8,564 nucleotides of DNA from a virus (IMGVR_UViG_2695420596_000003:1-8564); one strand, 5' to 3'; counted from the stretch's first letter, positions 1 to 8,403 are shown. Numbers and translations: made by a program. Notes: generated by a model not told the origin, from the sequence alone.

Positions 1-660
1 TTCTGTTGCGGTCGTTGCATCCCTGGCTGCATTACCGGCTGCACTTTCTGCCGTCTTTCTTGACAATTCAGCTTCTGCTGCACTTTGTGATGACTCACTG
101 GCTTTTTGAGCGGCCGCAGAGGCCGAGGACGAGGACGCCTCCTCTGACTGCTTTGCAGCGGCTGCACTTTCTGCCGCCTGCCGGGCTGACTCCGATGCAT
201 CCCCTGCTGAAGTGTCAGCATTTGCAGCGTTCTCTTCTGCCTGACTGGCTGATATGCCGGCATTCCTCGCGGACGTCTCCGCCTCTCCGGCATTCTTCTT
301 CGCCTCCTCAGCGTGACGCGCCGCTTCTTCCACCATCAGTTCAAAACGACGCAGTGCCTCCGGCCGGACGTCATCCTCCGACATGGCACCGAGAAAATCA
401 TTCAGCGTACCGGGTTGAGAATCTTCATACACGGTGATGGTCCCGGCATGTGACGGCGGGAATCCTTCCACCAACAGAATGACGCTGTACTGACCGTACT
501 CAACGTCCATGCTGTAACGACCGGCTTCATCCGGATTTTCAGAGGCCACCGTGTTCACCACCACCGTGCTGCTGGTCCGTCTGGCTTTCAGTTGAATGGT
601 ACAGTTCTCTACCGGTTTTCCTGTGCCGTCTTTCAGTACACCTGAAATCTTTACTGCCAT
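1..660 (-). CDS. stf: Side tail fibre protein Stf, N-terminal 220 codons (5' partial; gene continues beyond window start)
   Basis: Minus-strand frame is open from ATG at 660-658 to position 1 with no stop (absent from the ORF track because it lacks a stop). Translation begins MAVKISGVLKDGTGKPVENCTIQLKARRTSSTVVVNTVASENPDEAGRYSMDVEYGQYSV..., near-identical to the lambda Stf N-terminus as remembered, then enters an Ala/Ser/Glu-rich low-complexity region. Possible SD GGGGTG upstream. Confidence 0.85.
   Translation of the reverse strand, partial: MAVKISGVLKDGTGKPVENCTIQLKARRTSSTVVVNTVASENPDEAGRYSMDVEYGQYSVILLVEGFPPSHAGTITVYEDSQPGTLNDFLGAMSEDDVRPEALRRFELMVEEAARHAEEAKKNAGEAETSARNAGISASQAEENAANADTSAGDASESARQAAESAAAAKQSEEASSSSASAAAQKASESSQSAAEAELSRKTAESAAGNAARDATTATE
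37..176. repeat. 18-bp perfect direct repeat (cggctgcactttctgccg at 37-54 and 159-176) within the stf low-complexity region
   Basis: Identical 18-mer seen twice, 122 bp apart; encodes a recurring AESAA peptide on the minus strand. Confidence 0.6.
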
Positions 661-724: not shown

Positions 725-1324
725 TCAGAACTTATAACCGACACCCACGATGAAACCGTCAGTGCGCCAGTCGCCACTGCCGGAGCCTTCATAAGCAATA
801 TCAATGGCCACGGATTCGGTCGGGTTAAACTGCACGCCAGCCCCCCACGCCAGAGACGTGTTGCTGTGGCGACCGTCATCACTTCCGGTCAGCACATCGT
901 GCGTTTTCCCCTTGTTGTCAGTTACGCGGAGATAATCCCCGGAGAAAGTCGACACACGGCTGTAAGCCACTCCCGCCATCGCATACGCGCTGAACCATTC
1001 ATTCACGCGCACAGACGGCCCCGCCATTACGCTGAACCAGCGGTTACGCACGGAATCTTCATGCCAGCGGGTATCGCTGTAACGGGTAATCTGGCGATTC
1101 CTGTCTCCTGCATAGCTGAATGACGTCACCAGCCCCAGCGTGTCCGTGAATTCATAACGGTATTTCACGTTAATCCCGTTAAGATTATCGCTACCGGGAG
1201 CGTTCGTCCGGGCATGAAGATACCCCGCGCTCAGCGTGGCCTGCTGCTCAGACGCCCATGCAGGCGCACCGGATACGGTCAGACAAATGGCTGCGGACAA
1301 AATGGCGGCATAAAGTTTACGCAT
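725..1324 (-). CDS. lom: Lom, outer-membrane beta-barrel protein of the Ail/Lom/PagC/OmpX family
   Basis: 199-aa ORF with an N-terminal signal peptide ([24 protein letters not shown]) and C-terminus ...[29 protein letters not shown], matching lambda Lom as remembered. SD GAGAGG 7 nt upstream. Position after J matches lambda gene order. Confidence 0.9.
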
Positions 1325-1390: not shown

Positions 1391-3778
1391 TCAGCTGATA
1401 CTGATACCTGCTGTGGATTTTTTCATCACCACAACCAGCAGATCGCTGATACTTGCTGTGGGATACCAGTTATTTACCAGCCATGCTGACACCGAAAACT
1501 CCAGCGTCATGTGACCGTGACCGGCAGGCATATCAATAACGCCACTGTAAATCAGCGTATTATCCAGCGCGGTACGGTTATAAATTTCAGCACCGTTTTT
1601 CCGCACTATCAGACGGCATGAGGAGTAAATATCAGTATGCTCTCTCTCATGTTTAGCGCCGCTGAATGCCACCGCCGGAATAACAATTTGCCGGTCAAAC
1701 GGCTGATCGTCATAAACCCTGACGGTAATGGTCCCTGATGGCCACCGCTCCGGTGCACGGGAATCCCGGGGGAAAGCTTTGCCCACTGTTTTAACGAGAT
1801 CGCCTTCAATCTGGTTCGCGGACAGTTTTCCCAGAACCCGACAGTTCTCGTTAATCGTGACGTTGTTGAGCGTCCCGGAATTCGCATTCACGTTACCGCT
1901 GATATCAGCATTTCTTGCGGTCAGCCTGCCCTCCGGCGTCAGGGAAAACGTCGGGGGATTGCCGGACGAGGTGATACTCACCGCAAACAGCCGCTTCAGG
2001 AACACATCGTTCATGAACAACTGATTCCCCTGCGCCACAAATAACGGCGTGGTGTTGCCGTCCTCCGGGTTAATCATCGCAATACGGTCAGCCAGCAGCA
2101 GTATGTTGCTCAGGGGCTGGCCATCAGTATCCTCAATCCCCGCTCCAATACCGGCAACATAGGGTATGCCATTTTTTGTTTTCTGTACCTTCAGCATGTA
2201 AAGTGCAGCAAGGTCATCATTTGTGTCCTTCTGCACGCGCTGTATCTGCTGTATGGTGGCGCTCTGGTCTTCCAGCGTTTTACTGACCGTCTGTGTGATT
2301 TCATTGCGGGTTTCGGTGATGGTGGTCTTCATCTCCGCCATCTCATCCGCAAGCTGGCTGTTGTCTATCAGCTCCCACAGCCCCTGAGCCAGATGCAGTT
2401 TTCCTATTTTTTCCCGAAACAGTCCCAGATACCCTTCTGCATCATTGCTGGCCCGGCCACTGGCTTCCACAAAAGCAGATTTCCCCACCAGGTTGACGCT
2501 GCGCACGTAAAACCAGAAATCCTTCCCGGGCTTAATGTGCGGGCCGGATACACTCCACTGACTGCCGGTCCCCAGATAACGGGCAGAGGTTTCCACCTGA
2601 GATATGTCTGCGATTTTTGCCTCCGAAAACCAGAACTCAAACTGTACCGTCGGGTCATACACCGCAAGACGCGGGACCGCTGTTATCTGAAAATAGCCCG
2701 GTGTCAGCTCAATCGTGGCGGGTACCGCAGGTGCATTAATCCTGAACGTGGTGGTGGCCGGTTCGCCCTGCTGGCCATAACTGTTAATTGCCCTGACTGT
2801 CAGGGTGTATTCCCCGAGCGGCAGGCCGCTGAAACGGTGCTCCGTGTCTGCGGTGATGGCGGTGGTCACCAGTCTGGCATCCGTTCCCTTACCACTGGTC
2901 AGGCGCAGACTGAAGCGCACGCCCTTCACCACCCGCGGCGTGTCCCATTTAGCCTGCGCCAGATACTGGCCGTCAGCTGCACTCACCTCCACCGTCAGGT
3001 GCTGTACTGCCGGTGGGATGACGCTGTTCAGGGAACCTGACTGCGGCTCAAAGCGGGCACCGTTATCCACGATGGCTTCTTTTTCCGGTACGTGCTGCAC
3101 CGCCGTGATGGCAAAGGTGCCGTCCGTGTTTTCCCGGACGGAGACACAGCGGAACAGGCGACGGCGCAGTGACGGCAGGGACCAGAGCGTCTTATTCTGC
3201 AGCTGGTCCGAGGTGCTGTCCGCTGTCTCCCGGACCATCCGGATGTTAAAGGGCCGCTCAGGCAGATTATCCAGAATCACCGACGCCAGAAACTGCGAGG
3301 TGGTCTTGCCGTTAATGGTGACATCCTTTTCCGTCACCCAGTTACCGTTACGCTGTAACTGAATCAGCAGGCGGACGGATGTCGGGTTTCGGTCACCCTT
3401 TGACGTGGTCTGCACCAGTGACTGCACCCCGAAGGTGACCCGCAGGCGGTCAATGTTCGCGGATGTAATGGTGCGCGTCACCGGCTTTGCCTTCGTCACT
3501 TCCACGCCCAGTGCGGTTTCCGCCCCGGAGGACTCAAAGCCTTCAGGTGGTGTCTGCTCCTGCTCCCCGGCGCGCCAGACCGCGGTCACACCATGTATCA
3601 CAGGATTACCGTCCGTGTCCGTCAGCGGGGTTTTGTTCACCAGGATACTCTGCAGCCCCTTCACCGGACCTTCAATCGGCCCTTCACCAATGGCGTCAAT
3701 CACGCTCATCATCTGCGTGGATTTGAGATTGTCCTTCGCCTCACGAGGTGTGTGCGCCCTGCCGCCACCTTTACCCAT
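1391..3778 (-). CDS. J: Tail tip / host-specificity protein J (central tail fibre), shortened 795-aa form
   Basis: N-terminus [22 protein letters not shown]... and downstream blocks ([34 protein letters not shown]; [27 protein letters not shown]; [18 protein letters not shown]; [20 protein letters not shown]) match lambda gpJ as remembered. SD GAGAGG upstream of ATG at 3778. Length is about 340 aa short of lambda gpJ (1132 aa from memory). Confidence 0.9.
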
Positions 3779-3911: not shown

Positions 3912-4439
3912 ATGAAATGTAAAATCATTGCTGCCATTGCCATGCTGACAGCAGCATCATGCGGATACGCAGCAGAACAGGAAGTCCCAATGAACCTTGT
4001 CAGTGCTGACGGAAAAGAAGTCAGCATTGGAAAAATAACCATTCAGGAGACCCCCTACGGTCTGCTGTTCACACCAGCCCTTCACTCTCTGTCTGAAGGC
4101 ATTCATGGTTTTCATGTGCACGAAAAAGGAAATTGCGCCCCGGCACTGAAAGACGGAAAACCGGTCGCAGCATTATCGGCTGGCGGTCACTTTGACCCGA
4201 AAAACACCGGCAAACATCTTGGCCCCTGGTCTCCGGATGGACACCTGGGCGACCTCCCTGCGCTGTTCGTGACGCATGACGGAAAAGCGAACTACCCGGT
4301 CCTGGCCCCGAGACTGAACTCATTAAAAGAGATTAAAGGGCGTTCTCTCATGCTTCATGCTGGCGGTGATAACCATCATGACCATCCGGAGCCCCTGGGC
4401 GGTGGTGGTGCGAGAATGGCCTGCGGCATCATTCAATAA
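3912..4439 (+). CDS. sodC: Periplasmic Cu/Zn superoxide dismutase (prophage-borne SodC)
   Basis: 175-aa product with a signal peptide ([20 protein letters not shown]) and Cu/Zn-SOD motifs [31 protein letters not shown] and C-terminal [19 protein letters not shown] 5 nt upstream of ATG at 3912. The longer ORF-track entry 3405..4439 is an antisense-to-J extension of the same frame. Confidence 0.92.
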
Positions 4440-4586: not shown

Positions 4587-4630
4587 TCCCGCAGTTCCTG
4601 TCCGTGAGCACTGCGGGATTTTTTCGCTTT
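4587..4630 (+). terminator. Second plus-strand rho-independent terminator abutting the 3' end of gene I
   Basis: 9-bp stem tcccgcagt (4587-4595) / actgcggga (4610-4618) with a 14-nt loop, followed by TTTTTTCGCTTTT (4619-4631). Confidence 0.5.
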
Positions 4631-5310
4631 TATGCCTGCCGCCCGATAACCACCACCTTCCCGTCACCGCCTTCATCACGGGTACTGATGTCCTGGGATA
4701 TACGGCGGGAGCCAACCAGCATTTCACCGTAAGGCACCGGCATCGGGTTCCCCTGGGCAATCATGTTATCCAGCGAGGAAAAGTACGTGTTCTGTCTGCC
4801 GTTATCCGTGCTTTTGTACTCCGGTACTTTAGCCTTCGGGGCCAGCATCTGAGCCACACCACCCAGAATCATGCTGGCCCCCAGAGAAAACAGCATCGTG
4901 GTGGCAGAAAAACCACCGGCTGCCAGGGCTGAACCCCATAACGCCATTGATGCCCCGGCCGTGAAGAACGACCCCACGATGGCTGCCGCCCCCAGCACAA
5001 TCTGCAGTCCGCCCTTTCCGGCTCCGGCCAGTCGCGGCACAATATGGATGACCGCCCCCTCACCCAGAGGTTCGTGAAGACGGGCGTACACCGCCTCCGG
5101 TGCCGTGTCCTCACCGCGAATACGTATCTGGTACCAGCCTTCGTTCATCTGACGGCGGAATCCCGGCATCTGCATCGACAGGGCACGGATGGCTTCCGCT
5201 GCCGTGTTCACATACAGGCTGAGGCGGCGGCCAAATCGTTGTAAATCCCCGTGAAGGCAGATACGTGCCAGTGGCGGTGACGCCAGGCTGAATGCGTTCG
5301 TCGTTGCCAT
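4630..5310 (-). CDS. I: Tail tip assembly protein I
   Basis: 226 aa: MATTNAFSLASPPLARICLHGDLQRFGRR ... QIVLGAAAIVGSFFTAG ... GASMILGGVAQMLAPKA ... NTYFSSLDNMIAQGN, matching lambda gpI as remembered. Overlaps K by 103 nt, the same arrangement I recall for lambda K/I. Confidence 0.9.
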   Translation of the reverse strand: MATTNAFSLASPPLARICLHGDLQRFGRRLSLYVNTAAEAIRALSMQMPGFRRQMNEGWYQIRIRGEDTAPEAVYARLHEPLGEGAVIHIVPRLAGAGKGGLQIVLGAAAIVGSFFTAGASMALWGSALAAGGFSATTMLFSLGASMILGGVAQMLAPKAKVPEYKSTDNGRQNTYFSSLDNMIAQGNPMPVPYGEMLVGSRRISQDISTRDEGGDGKVVVIGRQA

Positions 5311-5951
5311 TTTTCGGAATACCTCTCCCGTTTACTCAGTTGTTCAGGCAGATGGTGAAGCAGCTCACCGTTGCCGCAGTATATGGCGGCATGATTGGCC
5401 ACCGATGCGCCAAAGCAGCACAGCAGGATATCGCCAGGCTGTGCGGAAGGCAGGGAAATCCTGTAAAAACCAGTCGCCTCCATATTGTCCAGGTACAGGT
5501 TCTGACCGTTGCGCCACCAGTCATCCTCACGCTCAAAATCCGGCATATCAATTCCCGCCAGATGGTAGGCATCCCGGAACAGCGTGTAACAGTCCGTCAC
5601 CCCGTGCTCAAAGCGCCGTCCTGTCAGATGTGGCACACAGCGGAATTTATGAATTTCCCCCCGGCAGACCAGCCACCAGGACAGTGCACTTTTTATCTGC
5701 AGCCGCCGGTCGGCCTCGCTCAGCCAGGGCAGACCACCGGGATGACTGTGGACCAGTGCCACAATCTCCCCCTGCATCTCTGCCCGCAGCCAGTCTTCCG
5801 GTGCAATACGAAAATACGCCTCCGGCTCTGCAGAGATATTCACACAAGGGATATACCGCTCCCCCTCCGGCGTTCTCACCACGAAGCCGCACGACTCCGC
5901 AGGCACACACCGCCGGGCATGCGCCAGAATCGCTGATTCTGTCTGTGTCAT
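5208..5951 (-). CDS. K: Tail tip assembly protein K (JAMM/MPN metalloprotease-like plus NlpC/P60-like domains)
   Basis: 247 aa starting MTQTESAILAHARRCVPAESCGFVV, matching lambda gpK as remembered. JAMM motif HSHPGGLPWLSEAD is present; Cys in GVTDCYTL and His in ANHAAIY fit an NlpC/P60 Cys-His pair. Confidence 0.9.
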   Translation of the reverse strand: MTQTESAILAHARRCVPAESCGFVVRTPEGERYIPCVNISAEPEAYFRIAPEDWLRAEMQGEIVALVHSHPGGLPWLSEADRRLQIKSALSWWLVCRGEIHKFRCVPHLTGRRFEHGVTDCYTLFRDAYHLAGIDMPDFEREDDWWRNGQNLYLDNMEATGFYRISLPSAQPGDILLCCFGASVANHAAIYCGNGELLHHLPEQLSKRERYSEKWQRRTHSAWRHRHWHVSAFTGIYNDLAAASACM

Positions 5952-5956
5952 TGGAT

Positions 5957-6655
5957 TTACTGCGAAAGTTTGTTAATGGAAAGGAAACCGCCAAAATTAG
6001 CCACCATGCCGCGCATCTCACACCCGCGCATGCACTTGCTGCATCTGTCCTTACGGATATCGGTGGTGGGTTTATCGAACTCATCCGCCACCGCAGGACC
6101 GTTATACCCGCATTCATCTCCCCGGTAATCCCACATACAGGTGTTCGCCAGCATGATGCGACCGGGAAACAGCGCTCCGTCCGTCTCCGTCGGTGTTGCC
6201 AGCACAAACGAGGCTGTCATGGCCGTCAGCTCTGACATCTGCTCCACCACCCAGCGGTCGCTCAGCTCCTGCTCCGGGTCCGCTTCCGGATTGCCCGCCA
6301 CAAAATTCACCGCATCCAGAAAACGCGCATACACCCGGCGGCGGACCACCGTGGCACCCACCAGGCTCTGCAAATCCTCCGCCATCCCGGTGACAAGACC
6401 GAACAGATTGGACACCGTCAGCGACGGGCGGGCACTGCAGCCCTTTCCGTTCATCTCAAAGCCACTGCCGTCAATCGGGTATGCCTGATATTGCCGCCCC
6501 TGCCAGGTAACCGCCTCCCCTTTTTCATTCAGCTCATTGCAGAAAAAATACCGCTCACCACCCTGTACCGTCAGGTCGATTTCCCAGAGTACCACCCGCG
6601 GTGACTGCTCTGATTTAACCGACTCGTTCAGACTTTCTTCGTGAATATCCTGCAT
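5957..6655 (-). CDS. L: Minor tail protein L (tail tip, Fe-S cluster protein)
   Basis: 232 aa: MQDIHEESLNESVKSEQSPRVVLWEIDLTVQGGERYFFCNE..., with a C-terminal cysteine cluster (CMWDYRGDECGY ... DRCSKCMRGCEM) as in lambda gpL. Start overlaps the M stop (ATGA). Confidence 0.92.
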   Translation of the reverse strand: MQDIHEESLNESVKSEQSPRVVLWEIDLTVQGGERYFFCNELNEKGEAVTWQGRQYQAYPIDGSGFEMNGKGCSARPSLTVSNLFGLVTGMAEDLQSLVGATVVRRRVYARFLDAVNFVAGNPEADPEQELSDRWVVEQMSELTAMTASFVLATPTETDGALFPGRIMLANTCMWDYRGDECGYNGPAVADEFDKPTTDIRKDRCSKCMRGCEMRGMVANFGGFLSINKLSQ

Positions 6656-6984
6656 CAGTTCACCACCTGCTTAAACTCCGCGCTGAATTCAACCCGCAGC
6701 ATGCGAACCCGTGATGACCAGGCGGCACAGGTCACCTTTATCTGCCGCCAGGCATAAGGCGGTGTCCACAGAAACGCCTTCCAGCCACCGTGCTCTGCCA
6801 GGAATGCCTCCAGATGTCGGGCCTCCTCCCGGGTCACGGAAAGCGTCACACGGTATGTTTTCAGGTCAGCATTCAGCCCCGCCGCCATACGCTGCGAATA
6901 CCCGTCACCAAAACGCACTTCACGCACCGATGGCTGCGAGTTCACCTCCATATCCGGCTTCACTTTCCAGCGAAATGTTTTCAT
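6655..6984 (-). CDS. M: Minor tail protein M
   Basis: 109 aa: MKTFRWKVKPDMEVNSQPSVREVRFGDGYSQRMAAGLNADLKTYRVTLSV..., matching lambda gpM in sequence and length as remembered. Start overlaps the H-remnant stop by 4 nt. Confidence 0.9.
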   Translation of the reverse strand: MKTFRWKVKPDMEVNSQPSVREVRFGDGYSQRMAAGLNADLKTYRVTLSVTREEARHLEAFLAEHGGWKAFLWTPPYAWRQIKVTCAAWSSRVRMLRVEFSAEFKQVVN

Positions 6985-7229
6985 CGCCTGCCTCCGGAAA
7001 AGACGCCGCCATCACGCATCTGCGCCTGAATCTCATCCTGCGCCCCCTTGCGGGCCATGTCATACACCGCCTTCATCAGCTGCGGCCCCGCCTGTCCGTT
7101 GGTGCCGTCGTTCTGAATCACCACGTGATTGTTCTGATTAAAACTAATGCCTTCCGCCCGCCGCATCTGCGCCGGACTTCCGGCACCGCCCACATAACCA
7201 CCTTCCGCATAATGCAGTTGTGACAGCGC
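6981..7229 (-). pseudogene. H: 3'-terminal remnant (~82 codons) of tail tape-measure gene H
   Basis: Frame ends ...NNHVVIQNDGTNGQAGPQLMKAVYDMARKGAQDEIQAQMRDGGVFSGGRR* and overlaps the M start as lambda H does, resembling the tape-measure C-terminus. The frame is closed by an in-frame stop at 7230-7232 only ~83 codons upstream; the 'M' in the ORF track is a GTG. A full tape-measure protein is ~850 aa. Confidence 0.8.
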
Positions 7230-7236
7230 TCATCAT

Positions 7237-7266
7237 ATTATTCAGTTGTTGCTCTGATATATTCAT
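7237..7266 (-). pseudogene. A: 5' stub (~10 codons) of terminase large subunit gene
   Basis: ATG at 7266-7264 overlaps the Nu1 3' end, as the lambda A start overlaps Nu1. It encodes MNISEQQLNN (lambda gpA starts MNISNSQVN from memory), then runs out of frame into H-derived sequence and terminates after ~40 codons. Confidence 0.5.
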
Positions 7267-7744
7267 CAAGTAAATCCGGTAATTTATCCCCTGCCCGCGC
7301 ACACTGATTTGCCCCCTTAGCAATAAGGGTTTTCAGATGGTCAAGATGGCGCGGTGTTAAATCAGGAAACTGTCGCTGCATGGATAAAGGGATGGAATCA
7401 AGCGTACTGGATAACGCCATTGCCAGCTTACTGAGGGCAAAAATACAGAATCCGGTGTCAATAAGCTTACCTTCGGTTACCTGATTTTTAAGTTTTTGAG
7501 CTACGGCCTGTTCTTCTGTCAGTTCAGCTCTGGCCCGAAGCAGCCTTTCCTCCAGATCGCCCTCGTCATCAGGTATTCTCTGATTGTGTTGTCGCCGCTC
7601 GCGATCTATCTCCAGTACAGTTTTAACGTCATAAAAAACTTCCCTCCCCCGACGCTCAACAGGAGGAACGCCCCATTTATCAAATGCCTGAACAGATATA
7701 CCGATGGAGGAGGCCATATCACTTTTATTCAATAAAAAGGCCAT
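7238..7744 (-). CDS. nu1: Terminase small subunit, Nu1-like (NohA/NohD-like)
   Basis: C-terminal half ...TGFCIFALSKLAMALSSTLDSIPLSMQRQFPDLTPRHLDHLKTLIAKG...LPDLLDEYIRATTE aligns with lambda Nu1 (TAFCTFVLSRIAGEIASILDGLPLSVQRRFPELENRHVDFLKRDII...LLSEYIEQSG) as remembered. Start chosen at ATG 7744 (MAFLLNKSD..., preceded by GGAGAGGAG) by alignment with the lambda N-terminus; the ORF-track start at 7849 and the ATG at 7762 are alternatives. Lies ~190 bp from cosN as in lambda. Confidence 0.8.
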   Translation of the reverse strand: MAFLLNKSDMASSIGISVQAFDKWGVPPVERRGREVFYDVKTVLEIDRERRQHNQRIPDDEGDLEERLLRARAELTEEQAVAQKLKNQVTEGKLIDTGFCIFALSKLAMALSSTLDSIPLSMQRQFPDLTPRHLDHLKTLIAKGANQCARAGDKLPDLLDEYIRATTE

Positions 7745-7938
7745 CTCCTCTCCATAAGCCATCGATAAAAAGCGATACAACAACCATGTGTTTTTACAAA
7801 ACCATTTGATATCATTGACATTTTTCGCATTGACGACATCAAAACACATCGTAAGGTTGTTGTATTTATTTTATTTTCACCTTACTTATCAATTAGATAT
7901 ACCAAACAATTAAACAACAACTCCCCCTCAAAAAATCT

Positions 7939-8001
7939 CATAAATAGCGAAAACCCGCGAGGTCGCCGCCCCGTAACCTGTCGGATCGCCGGAAAGGACC
8001 C
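7939..8001 (-). other. cos: Cohesive-end site cos (cosN 12-nt overhang at 7960-7971, flanking cosQ/cosB-proximal sequence)
   Basis: Reverse complement of 7939-7971 reads GGGCGGCGACCTCGCGGGTTTTCGCTATTTATGA, identical to the first 33 nt of the lambda left end as remembered. 7972-8001 (reverse complement GGGTCCTTTCCGGCGATCCGACAGGTTACG) matches the lambda right end. Confidence 0.85.
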
Positions 8002-8008
8002 ACGAAAA

Positions 8009-8023
8009 TGATAATAATTATCA
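8009..8023. promoter_or_regulatory. Perfect 7-1-7 palindrome TGATAATAATTATCA matching the Fur-box consensus TGATAATnATTATCA
   Basis: Read directly from the sequence; the inverted repeat extends to 8-1-8 (ATGATAAT A ATTATCAT, 8008-8024). Lies in the divergent intergenic region between cos and the YlcI-like gene. Confidence 0.35.
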
Positions 8024-8178
8024 TCTACATGAGGTTTATCACGACATGTGTGTACGCCATCAAACCACGAGAAATAATCAATTATTACGCAGGTATCGTA
8101 TTAATTGATCTGCATCAAATTAGCGTAAAAGCAACTTCAGATAATACAAATCAGCAACACTGAATACGGGGCAACATT

Positions 8179-8403
8179 ATGTCATCAAAGAACAGAACCC
8201 GCAGAACAACAACCCGCAACATCCGATTTCCAAACCAGATAATTGAACAAATTAACATCGCTCTTGACCTGAAAGGTTCAGGTAATTTTTCAGCGTGGGT
8301 TATTGAAGCCTGCAGAAGAAGATTAATTAATGAAAAATATTCTCAATTTGTACCCAACAAAGACAAACACGACCAGAGCACCTGTTCAGACAGGTTTACT
8401 TAA
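8179..8403 (+). CDS. Small YlcI/YnfO-family (DUF3950-like) prophage protein, possible DNA-binding protein
   Basis: 74-aa ORF MSSKNRTRRTTTRNIRFPNQIIEQINIALDLKGSGNFSAWVIEACRRRL..., transcribed divergently from Nu1 across cos, the same arrangement as ylcI/nohD and ynfO/nohA in E. coli K-12 cryptic prophages (from memory). Weak SD (ACGGGG) upstream; terminator downstream. Confidence 0.6.
   Translation: MSSKNRTRRTTTRNIRFPNQIIEQINIALDLKGSGNFSAWVIEACRRRLINEKYSQFVPNKDKHDQSTCSDRFT

Follow-up and report, generated by a model that had tools for sequence, protein, structure and literature searches.

The window, that is, the whole 8,564-nt stretch of DNA that was analyzed, is the entire contig CXZG01000055.1 of Escherichia coli assembly GCA_001283165.1 (locus label L003), and it is a remnant of a dusA-integrated lambdoid prophage with sodC, lom, and, downstream, nleG. 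All of the phage genes within it lie on the minus strand, while sodC and a ylcI/DUF3950 gene lie on the plus strand. In gene order, the features are as follows.

Start of the order, before the ylcI/DUF3950 gene: PerC-family gene, 3' end only
8179-8403, plus strand: ylcI/DUF3950 gene
7960-7971, minus strand: cosN-like cohesive-end site GGGCGGCGACCT, read directly in the sequence, in a conserved cos region
7238-7744, minus strand: small terminase subunit gene (Nu1 homologue), intact (PF07471, Phage_Nu1)
7210-7266, minus strand: stub of the large terminase gene terL (gpA/TerL), first 19 codons, MNISEQQLNNMMSAVTTAL (57 nt)
7210-7211, minus strand: deletion junction 1, with TA common to both parents (2-nt microhomology)
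7144-7209, minus strand: out-of-frame read-through of the stub into H DNA, CGRWLCGRCRKSGADAAGGRH, from the ORF list, with stop TAG at 7146-7144
6981-7211, minus strand: remnant of the tape-measure gene H, last 76 codons plus stop (231 nt), colinear with the annotated 3' end
6655-6984, minus strand: tail-tip gene M (PF05939; 'phage tail protein' in relatives)
5957-6655, minus strand: tail-tip gene L (PF05100)
5208-5951, minus strand: tail-tip gene K, a JAB/NlpC-P60 peptidase (PF14464 and PF00877)
4630-5211, minus strand: tail assembly gene I (PF06805)
3912-4439, plus strand: sodC (Cu,Zn superoxide dismutase, PF00080), cargo between I and J
1391-3778, minus strand: J' (tail-tip/host-specificity gene with an internal in-frame deletion), 795 aa versus 1,157 aa for intact J
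3180-3181, minus strand: deletion junction 2, inside J, with a 2-nt TC microhomology
725-1324, minus strand: lom (Ail/Lom outer-membrane protein, PF06316), cargo
1-660, minus strand: side tail-fibre gene (PF08400), 5' part, cut by the contig end

The site GGGCGGCGACCT resembles the λ cosN sequence. The surrounding cos region (7931-8326) is 87-88% identical to λ-type phages, and phage DE3 annotates the matching stretch as 'cos site'. The adjoining Nu1 gene is of the λ type, as judged by its PF07471 domain, its position next to cos, and the overlap of its 3' end by the terL ATG at 7266; its DNA is 100% identical to an annotated 'terminase small subunit', and it terminates, as had been proposed, at 7238 (TAA at 7240-7238). 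Other starts called for this gene are at 7849 (203 aa) and at 7717 (RefSeq, 159 aa).

Two intact relatives were used as parents for comparison: locus L001, in E. coli 2003-3014 (NZ_CP101292.1), and locus L010, in E. coli Z1323CEC0003 (NZ_CP148493.1, about 190-238 kb), the closer of the two, which is integrated beside dusA. E2865 (L009) was rejected as a relative, being a different prophage without sodC. In a BLAST comparison with L001, the window resolves into three colinear blocks: 8564-7210 matches L001 20001-21355 at 100%, 7211-3180 matches 33667-37703 at 97.6%, and 3181-614 matches 38788-41355 at 98.4%. Identity of the sequences flanking the first gap to L010 is 99.93% on the left (1 mismatch in 1,355) and 99.73% on the right, where a cluster of 9 mismatches lies at +762 to +882; in L010, both flanks are found 12.3 kb apart within one intact prophage. 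The intact dusA sodC/nleG prophages share with the window not only 99.7-100% identity on both flanks but also gene order, with sodC (annotated in both L001 and L010) on the opposite strand between I and J, followed by lom, the tail fibre gene, and nleG7, and with the integrase beside dusA. They differ in possessing the terL-to-H segment of 12,313 bp and the J segment of 1,086 bp, both absent from the window.

The flanks are also widely represented elsewhere. Seven listed complete E. coli genomes match the left flank (1,355 nt) at 100% identity, and 91 cover at least 80% of the query; in the matching genomes, the flank extends from PerC across 'terminase small subunit' and into 'phage terminase large subunit family protein'. 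For the right flank (312 nt), 242 records show at least 99% identity, and in them the sequence forms the 3' end of a gene annotated 'phage tail tape measure protein', with the M homologue next.

Junction 1 is placed by alignment, against both L001 and L010, between 7210, where the left match stops, and 7211, where the right one begins. The original prediction had described a deletion scar in which Nu1 is followed by a terminase stub joined out of frame to the distal end of H, a reading that is supported at its core, but it had located the junction within 7225-7270 (near 7235), which is about 25 nt off, the true position falling 14 nt outside that span. The ATG at 7266-7264 that opens MNISEQQLNN is exactly the annotated large terminase start in intact relatives (L001). 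However, the terminase sequence continues not for ~30 nt or 10 codons, as had been supposed, but for 57 nt or 19 codons, to 7210. These 57 nt are the beginning of the annotated TerL coding sequence in L001 (21299-23227) and L010 (22320-), and in phage PhiR12 the corresponding DNA is annotated 'terminase DNA packaging protein A'. Although colinear with the TerL N-terminus, the stub retains only 19 of 642 codons and lacks the PF05876 ATPase and PF20454 nuclease domains of a functional enzyme. Read-through adds 21 codons after the stub, giving a fusion ORF of 40 aa in total.

On the other side of the junction, distal H is followed by M, L, K, and I, as had been foreseen. The H remnant was thought to comprise ~82 codons; it has 76 plus the stop, from 7211 to 6981, and this sequence is the annotated 3' end of H, corresponding to the tape-measure coding sequences of L001 (31318-33897), L010 (32339-34918), VT1-Sakai, and PhiR12. 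The stop at 7232-7230 that was said to close the H frame is indeed a TGA in that frame, but it lies in terminase-derived DNA. Directly upstream of M, the remnant is colinear with the gpH C-terminus; with 783 of 859 codons gone, it is not a full-length gpH with the TMP_2 and Tape_meas_lam_C domains. Gene callers annotate on it a 70-aa ORF beginning at GTG 7193, and the 70-aa product has no Pfam match.

Compared with both intact relatives, exactly 12,313 bp are missing at junction 1, in keeping with the predicted loss of ~12 kb. The absent segment corresponds to L010 22377-34689 and is not a multiple of three; terL codon 19 is fused to codon 784 of the 859-codon H, out of frame, as had been claimed. 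According to the gene list and alignment of the intact relatives, the loss comprises the terminase-to-tape-measure block, for which removal of ~90% of H had been anticipated. Deleted from the head part are terL codons 20-642, the head-tail joining gene, and the genes for portal, S49 protease/scaffold, decoration protein, major capsid protein, FI, and FII; deleted from the tail part are Z, U, V, G, T, and H codons 1-783 (about 91% of H). A search for microhomology at the junction, which had been suggested as a check, yielded the 2-nt TA. Because the window, apart from two gaps, is colinear with an intact prophage that holds the missing DNA, the 12,313-bp loss is almost certainly a real deletion.

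The second gap, at junction 2, represents 1,086 bp (362 codons) absent in frame relative to the intact relatives, and the J' product lacks PF13550, a domain present in intact J. The claim that the element keeps cos, Nu1, and the tail-tip genes M-L-K-I-J therefore holds for cos, Nu1, M, L, K, and I, but J is short of 362 codons that include this domain. The J' junction is also found in L002 (GCA_016693495.1), on a 73.6-kb contig that continues beyond J' through the tail fibre gene, nleG, dinI, and the integrase and then into dusA-pspG-dnaB; because this contig reaches the integrase and dusA, it fixes the integration site of the J' prophage. Given the two deletions, neither heads nor tail tubes nor a normal tail tip can be made. 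The element is a prophage in decay: cos, Nu1, and cargo are still there, but particles can no longer be built.

Taken alone, the scar is of an ordinary and well-known cryptic-prophage kind. In the DLP12 prophage of K-12 (ylcI - cos - nohD - aaaD - tfaD), the annotation likewise shows a ylcI/DUF3950 gene and an intact Nu1 homologue, nohD, whose 3' end is overlapped by the terminase pseudogene aaaD, which was joined to late tail genes when the head/tail block was lost. The DLP12 deletion, however, reaches the tail-fibre assembly genes, whereas that of the window ends inside H, leaving M-L-K-I-(J'); we know of no recurrent breakpoint in DLP12. The Sp series of EHEC O157 Sakai also comprises lambdoid prophages that have been inactivated by internal deletions and IS events and have retained virulence cargo, but these belong to another prophage lineage and integration site than that of the window. 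Thus, the scar by itself adds one more defective lambdoid prophage, in which cos, Nu1, and cargo (sodC, lom, and downstream nleG) are kept yet no particles are made, and it changes nothing.

The unexpected part, and the one worth following, is that the nucleotide-precise endpoint in H recurs. Contigs carrying it were found by lookup of the exact 70-aa ORF of the H remnant, whose GTG at 7193 is 18 nt from the junction. This ORF is present on a handful of contigs, on which five different left partners adjoin the H breakpoint GGGTA|TGCGGAAGG, as listed here.

terL codon 19: L003 (the window; GCA_001283165.1) and L007 (Logan ERR124658); microhomology TA
3' end of a lambda-type Nu1: L006 (ENA metagenome contig); microhomology TA
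3' end of decoration gene D: L005 (GCA_017046475.1); no microhomology
Middle of chaperone gene G: L123 (Logan SRR15361645) and L222 (GCA_019481765.1); microhomology GGTA
N-terminal part of H: L004 (GCA_027556825.1); microhomology TAT

The ERZ27280773 bin is among the carrier genomes. In all five types, the retained right flank begins ...(TA)TGCGGAAGGTGG, corresponding to L010 34688-34690. The joins are illegitimate, their microhomologies measuring 0-4 nt, and in each case one end is fixed, while the other varies over 2 to 12 kb. Both sides of L003, L004, and L005 match L010 at 99.9-100%, which assigns them to the same prophage lineage. In four of the five types, the right flank shows no difference from L010 over at least 762 nt, which is compatible with one progenitor allele; the right flank of L123 is a different H sub-allele, differing from L010 at +104 to +137. 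At least four further deletions therefore end at the H nucleotide of the window; the isolates may be clonally related, in which case fewer of these would be independent events.

Two groups of candidates were set aside: the P0087 contigs, which are frameshift-ridden long-read assemblies rather than deletion carriers, and P0108 with its cluster, which encodes an unrelated Bro-N protein. Frameshifts in error-rich long-read assemblies were seen to yield the 70-aa call as well.

The manner in which the carriers were found restricts what could be seen. A 70-aa call mostly requires an endpoint between the ATG 9 nt upstream and the GTG 18 nt downstream of the break, a detectable stretch of about 24 nt. 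With an endpoint further upstream, the call tends instead to be an 'MRGY...' product, and such products do exist. Nevertheless, even in this ~24-nt stretch, all five junction types are confined to a single span of 3 nt, for which a probability of ~1e-3 to 1e-4 is estimated if endpoints were uniform, and for this reason the fixed endpoint is held to be real. Very probably, then, the H endpoint is anchored at a fixed break and is not a coincidence; the combination of one H breakpoint with five left partners points to a fixed break in the DNA.

These findings can be accommodated in a model in which a double-strand end would arise repeatedly at one position in H and the broken end would be closed by microhomology-mediated end joining to a variable point upstream. 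In E. coli of the EPEC/STEC type, the fixed end would most likely come from an insertion sequence that once lay in H and was removed, along with flanking DNA, by transposase-dependent, IEE-assisted excision. As a whole, an explanation by illegitimate deletions from a fixed H break, with a vanished IS as the likeliest source, is probably correct. The more specific proposal that IS excision caused the H break is tentative and is argued from its likeness to a known process.

In two reports (PMC9943667; bioRxiv 10.1101/2023.06.07.543989), transposase-dependent, IEE-assisted excision is described for elements of the IS3, IS1, and IS30 families, with IEE-dependent excision producing deletions beside the IS that range from a few nt to >40 kb; IEE itself is described as having a microhomology end-joining activity and as being present in >30% of E. 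coli assemblies. The IEE-assisted deletions of IS629 and the IS3 family in EHEC (Kusumoto et al. 2011, as summarized in these two reports) resemble the present ones in having one endpoint fixed and the other variable, in extending from a few nt to tens of kb with short microhomologies and with the IS gone, and in occurring in a host background that is EPEC/STEC-like. They differ in that, at the H site, an IS is seen in no relative, and the resemblance is one of pattern alone.

Accordingly, two of the hallmarks of IEE-type events are present here, namely, a shared endpoint with variable distal ends (five types) and short microhomology at the joints (TA, TA, TAT, GGTA, or none), whereas a third, an IS still in place at the common endpoint in either a progenitor or a sister genome, did not appear in a thin sampling of close relatives. 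A 3-kb probe centred on the site aligned as a single piece in all of the best 60 complete genomes. Scans of IMG/VR with an IUPAC pattern gave 112 matches, all of them intact H alleles, and a second pattern gave 0; a scan with a 42-mer from the right flank found 85 metagenome contigs and one GTDB contig, again all intact. When proteins were searched with the 76-aa remnant and with the 66 aa that precede the site, no H truncated at ...RGY and fused to an IS was detected. Overall, in about 260 contexts, neither an IS nor any other insertion was present at the H site. Because the defining IS was found in none of these contexts, the IEE type is a candidate assignment. Furthermore, because L123 carries a different sub-allele within 104 nt of the break, descent from a single IS-bearing ancestor would need either extra recombination or a second insertion at the same place. 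If a vanished IS was responsible, the junctions would constitute a natural record of IEE-type excision and flanking deletion acting on prophages, with events that could be counted in genome collections.

The lack of an IS at the site in about 260 contexts is also what favours another agent as the source of a fixed H break, either a sequence-specific nuclease (a defence system, a homing or TnpB-like endonuclease, or a restriction enzyme) or a transposase that acts at a cryptic 'TG...' pseudo-end where the retained flank starts, followed in each case by end joining. Such an agent would account for a right flank that invariably opens with TGCGG and for the L005 joint, which has no microhomology. 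However, none of the IS600, IS3-family, and IS66-family copies in related loci has an end that resembles the retained flank, the site lacks both a palindrome and a stable hairpin, and the TA-containing microhomology in four of the five junctions is a better fit to end joining than to strand transfer. To our knowledge, no candidate nuclease for the H site has been described, and this alternative is possible but doubtful. If no IS was ever there, the site would represent an unrecognized site-specific break in a conserved phage structural gene. In its strongest form, GGGTA|TGCGGAAGG would be the target of a sequence-specific breaking activity, rather than the position of a vanished IS, that repeatedly amputates the packaging/head side and leaves the half with the tail tip and cargo. 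This is unlikely; were it true, it would amount to a directed route of prophage inactivation and domestication.

Several features of the local sequence were considered as causes and rejected. A structural hot spot was dismissed given that the site contains no palindrome and that its DNA fold is no better than that of shuffles (z = -0.4). Similarly, a cryptic transposon end was discarded, the retained flank having only chance matches of 7-10 nt to the IS600, IS3-family, and IS66-family copies. By inspection, a pseudo-cos, GGGCGGTGCC, lies 19 nt away on the wrong side of the break, and a Chi-like sequence, GAAGGTGG, has two mismatches and an orientation that is wrong for protecting the retained side.

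A more conservative reading is that the window records a one-off, random illegitimate deletion during prophage decay and that the shared endpoint reflects coincidence together with ascertainment, which enters because the contigs were found through an exact match to the 70-aa ORF, whose start is only 18 nt away from the junction. Many truncated C-terminal fragments of H with other lengths do exist, the 70-aa call is also given by frameshifted long-read assemblies, and three other rearrangements (L008, L130/L131, and L132) end nearby, at L010 34667-34669. Coincidence is nonetheless improbable in the face of five distinct junctions in 3 nt of the detectable stretch, given the low estimate under uniformity cited above.

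Returning to the fixed H break as the preferred reading, two further alternatives concern the origin of the element rather than that of the breakpoint. Illegitimate recombination between two resident prophages, as part of a larger chromosomal rearrangement, would be consistent with the concentration of 9 mismatches in the right flank as against 1 in 1,355 on the left and with L006, in which a lambda-type Nu1, unlike that of L010, is joined at the same H site. Yet the flanks lie at the expected 12.3-kb spacing in one intact prophage to which they are 99.7-99.9% identical, and the J' allele in L002 runs on to the integrase and dusA; such an exchange is therefore very unlikely.

Selection for the architecture itself (cos, Nu1, tail-tip genes, and cargo), with the element behaving like a satellite that is packaged by helper lambdoid phages, would fit the 100% conservation of cos and Nu1 and the retention of cos plus most or all of Nu1 in both the window and L006. 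But J is gutted in the window copy, L004, L005, and L123 retain terminase and head genes instead, and selection would be unable to fix an endpoint to one nucleotide. Moreover, neither satellite-specific genes nor the hijacking functions and compact architecture of PICI, P4-like, or cos-satellite elements are found. Because only the two deletions interrupt its colinearity with the parent prophage, and because the sister deletions retain different sets of genes, the element is not a phage satellite, and the chance that its architecture was selected is slight.

Finally, the possibility that the contig is an assembly or library chimera of two prophage regions is raised by its being a short, whole contig in a short-read draft of a genome likely to contain several lambdoid prophages, and by the absence of the junction from GTDB representatives (no match to the junction 40-mer), from 5,426 complete E. 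coli genomes (none covering at least 80% of a junction-spanning probe), and from the IMG/VR and metagenome contigs examined, but it is extremely improbable. Collapse of the assembly graph, which had been named as a condition that would undo the deletion, is excluded because the flanks share no repeat beyond 2 nt, where a shared, k-mer-long one would be expected. In addition, the identical contig is on record for two samples, analogous junctions occur in NCBI, ENA/MEGAHIT, and Logan assemblies, and the independent Logan assembly of ERR124658 has the same junction as the window on contig ERR124658_278 (L007).

At the hot spot, the recurrent right-hand deletion breakpoint near the 3' end of tape-measure gene H (34688-34690 in the intact relative L010), the left partner in one contig (L006 1-142; ENA ERZ27280773 k141_178408) is a Nu1 allele of the lambda type; both the window and L010 have a different Nu1. 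The break in this contig lies only ~25 nt upstream of the expected terL start; consequently, two of the five left endpoints fall within ~80 nt of the Nu1/terL overlap. On the retained side, the same octamer is found twice:

Window 7201-7208 (L010 34691-34698): GCGGAAGG, the first 8 nt of the retained flank.
Window 7150-7157 (L010 34742-34749): second copy of the octamer, 51 nt downstream.

For the 70-aa ORF called on the H remnant, which starts with GTG, the octamer also provides a Shine-Dalgarno-like sequence; the stop of this ORF overlaps the start of M.

Loci from other assemblies contain further junctions beside the hot spot:

L130 7060-7491 and L131 208-373 (GCA_051338885.1, GCA_001520555.1), together with L008 (GCA_949281635.1): other rearrangements, located at L010 34667 (~21 nt upstream of the hot spot).
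L132 5990-6000 (GCA_039719545.1): H remnant beginning at L010 34669, adjoining an unrelated block.

Of the rearrangements in the first group, one is an inverted duplication, in which a single contig bears M-L-K-I-J on both strands, and the other joins L to H in tandem; either real snap-back structures or assembly artefacts could account for them. In L132, the block beside the H remnant carries integrase, large serine recombinase, and ParB-like genes; it is a different element adjoining the same end of H.

Deletions have also arisen within J and elsewhere among the late genes:

Window 3180-3181, minus strand, inside J' (1391-3778): junction of an in-frame internal deletion of 1,086 bp (362 codons), with TC microhomology.
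L123/L222, relative to L010: ~240 bp deleted around FI.
L123/L222, relative to L010: ~600 bp deleted, joining the FII/Z region to U.
L123/L222, relative to L010: ~400 bp deleted in K.

The J junction of L002 (GCA_016693495.1) is identical to that of the window. L005 carries another, out-of-frame deletion (L010 38757-39753), which overlaps that of the window but differs from it; the middle of J has therefore been lost at least twice in this prophage lineage. In the related prophage represented by L123 (Logan SRR15361645_116) and L222 (GCA_019481765.1), the internal deletions listed are additional to the G-to-H deletion, and small deletions riddle its late region.

One feature has kept its place:

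Window 3912-4439, plus strand: sodC, opposite in orientation to, and lying between, tail genes I and J.

Both intact relatives (L001 and L010) and every deletion variant have this moron in the same position.

Finally, in L010 (6246-9729), the phage N6-adenine methyltransferase gene is interrupted by an IS3-family element, which shows that elements of this family are active in the prophage lineage. This element is itself broken by a group II intron (ltrA).
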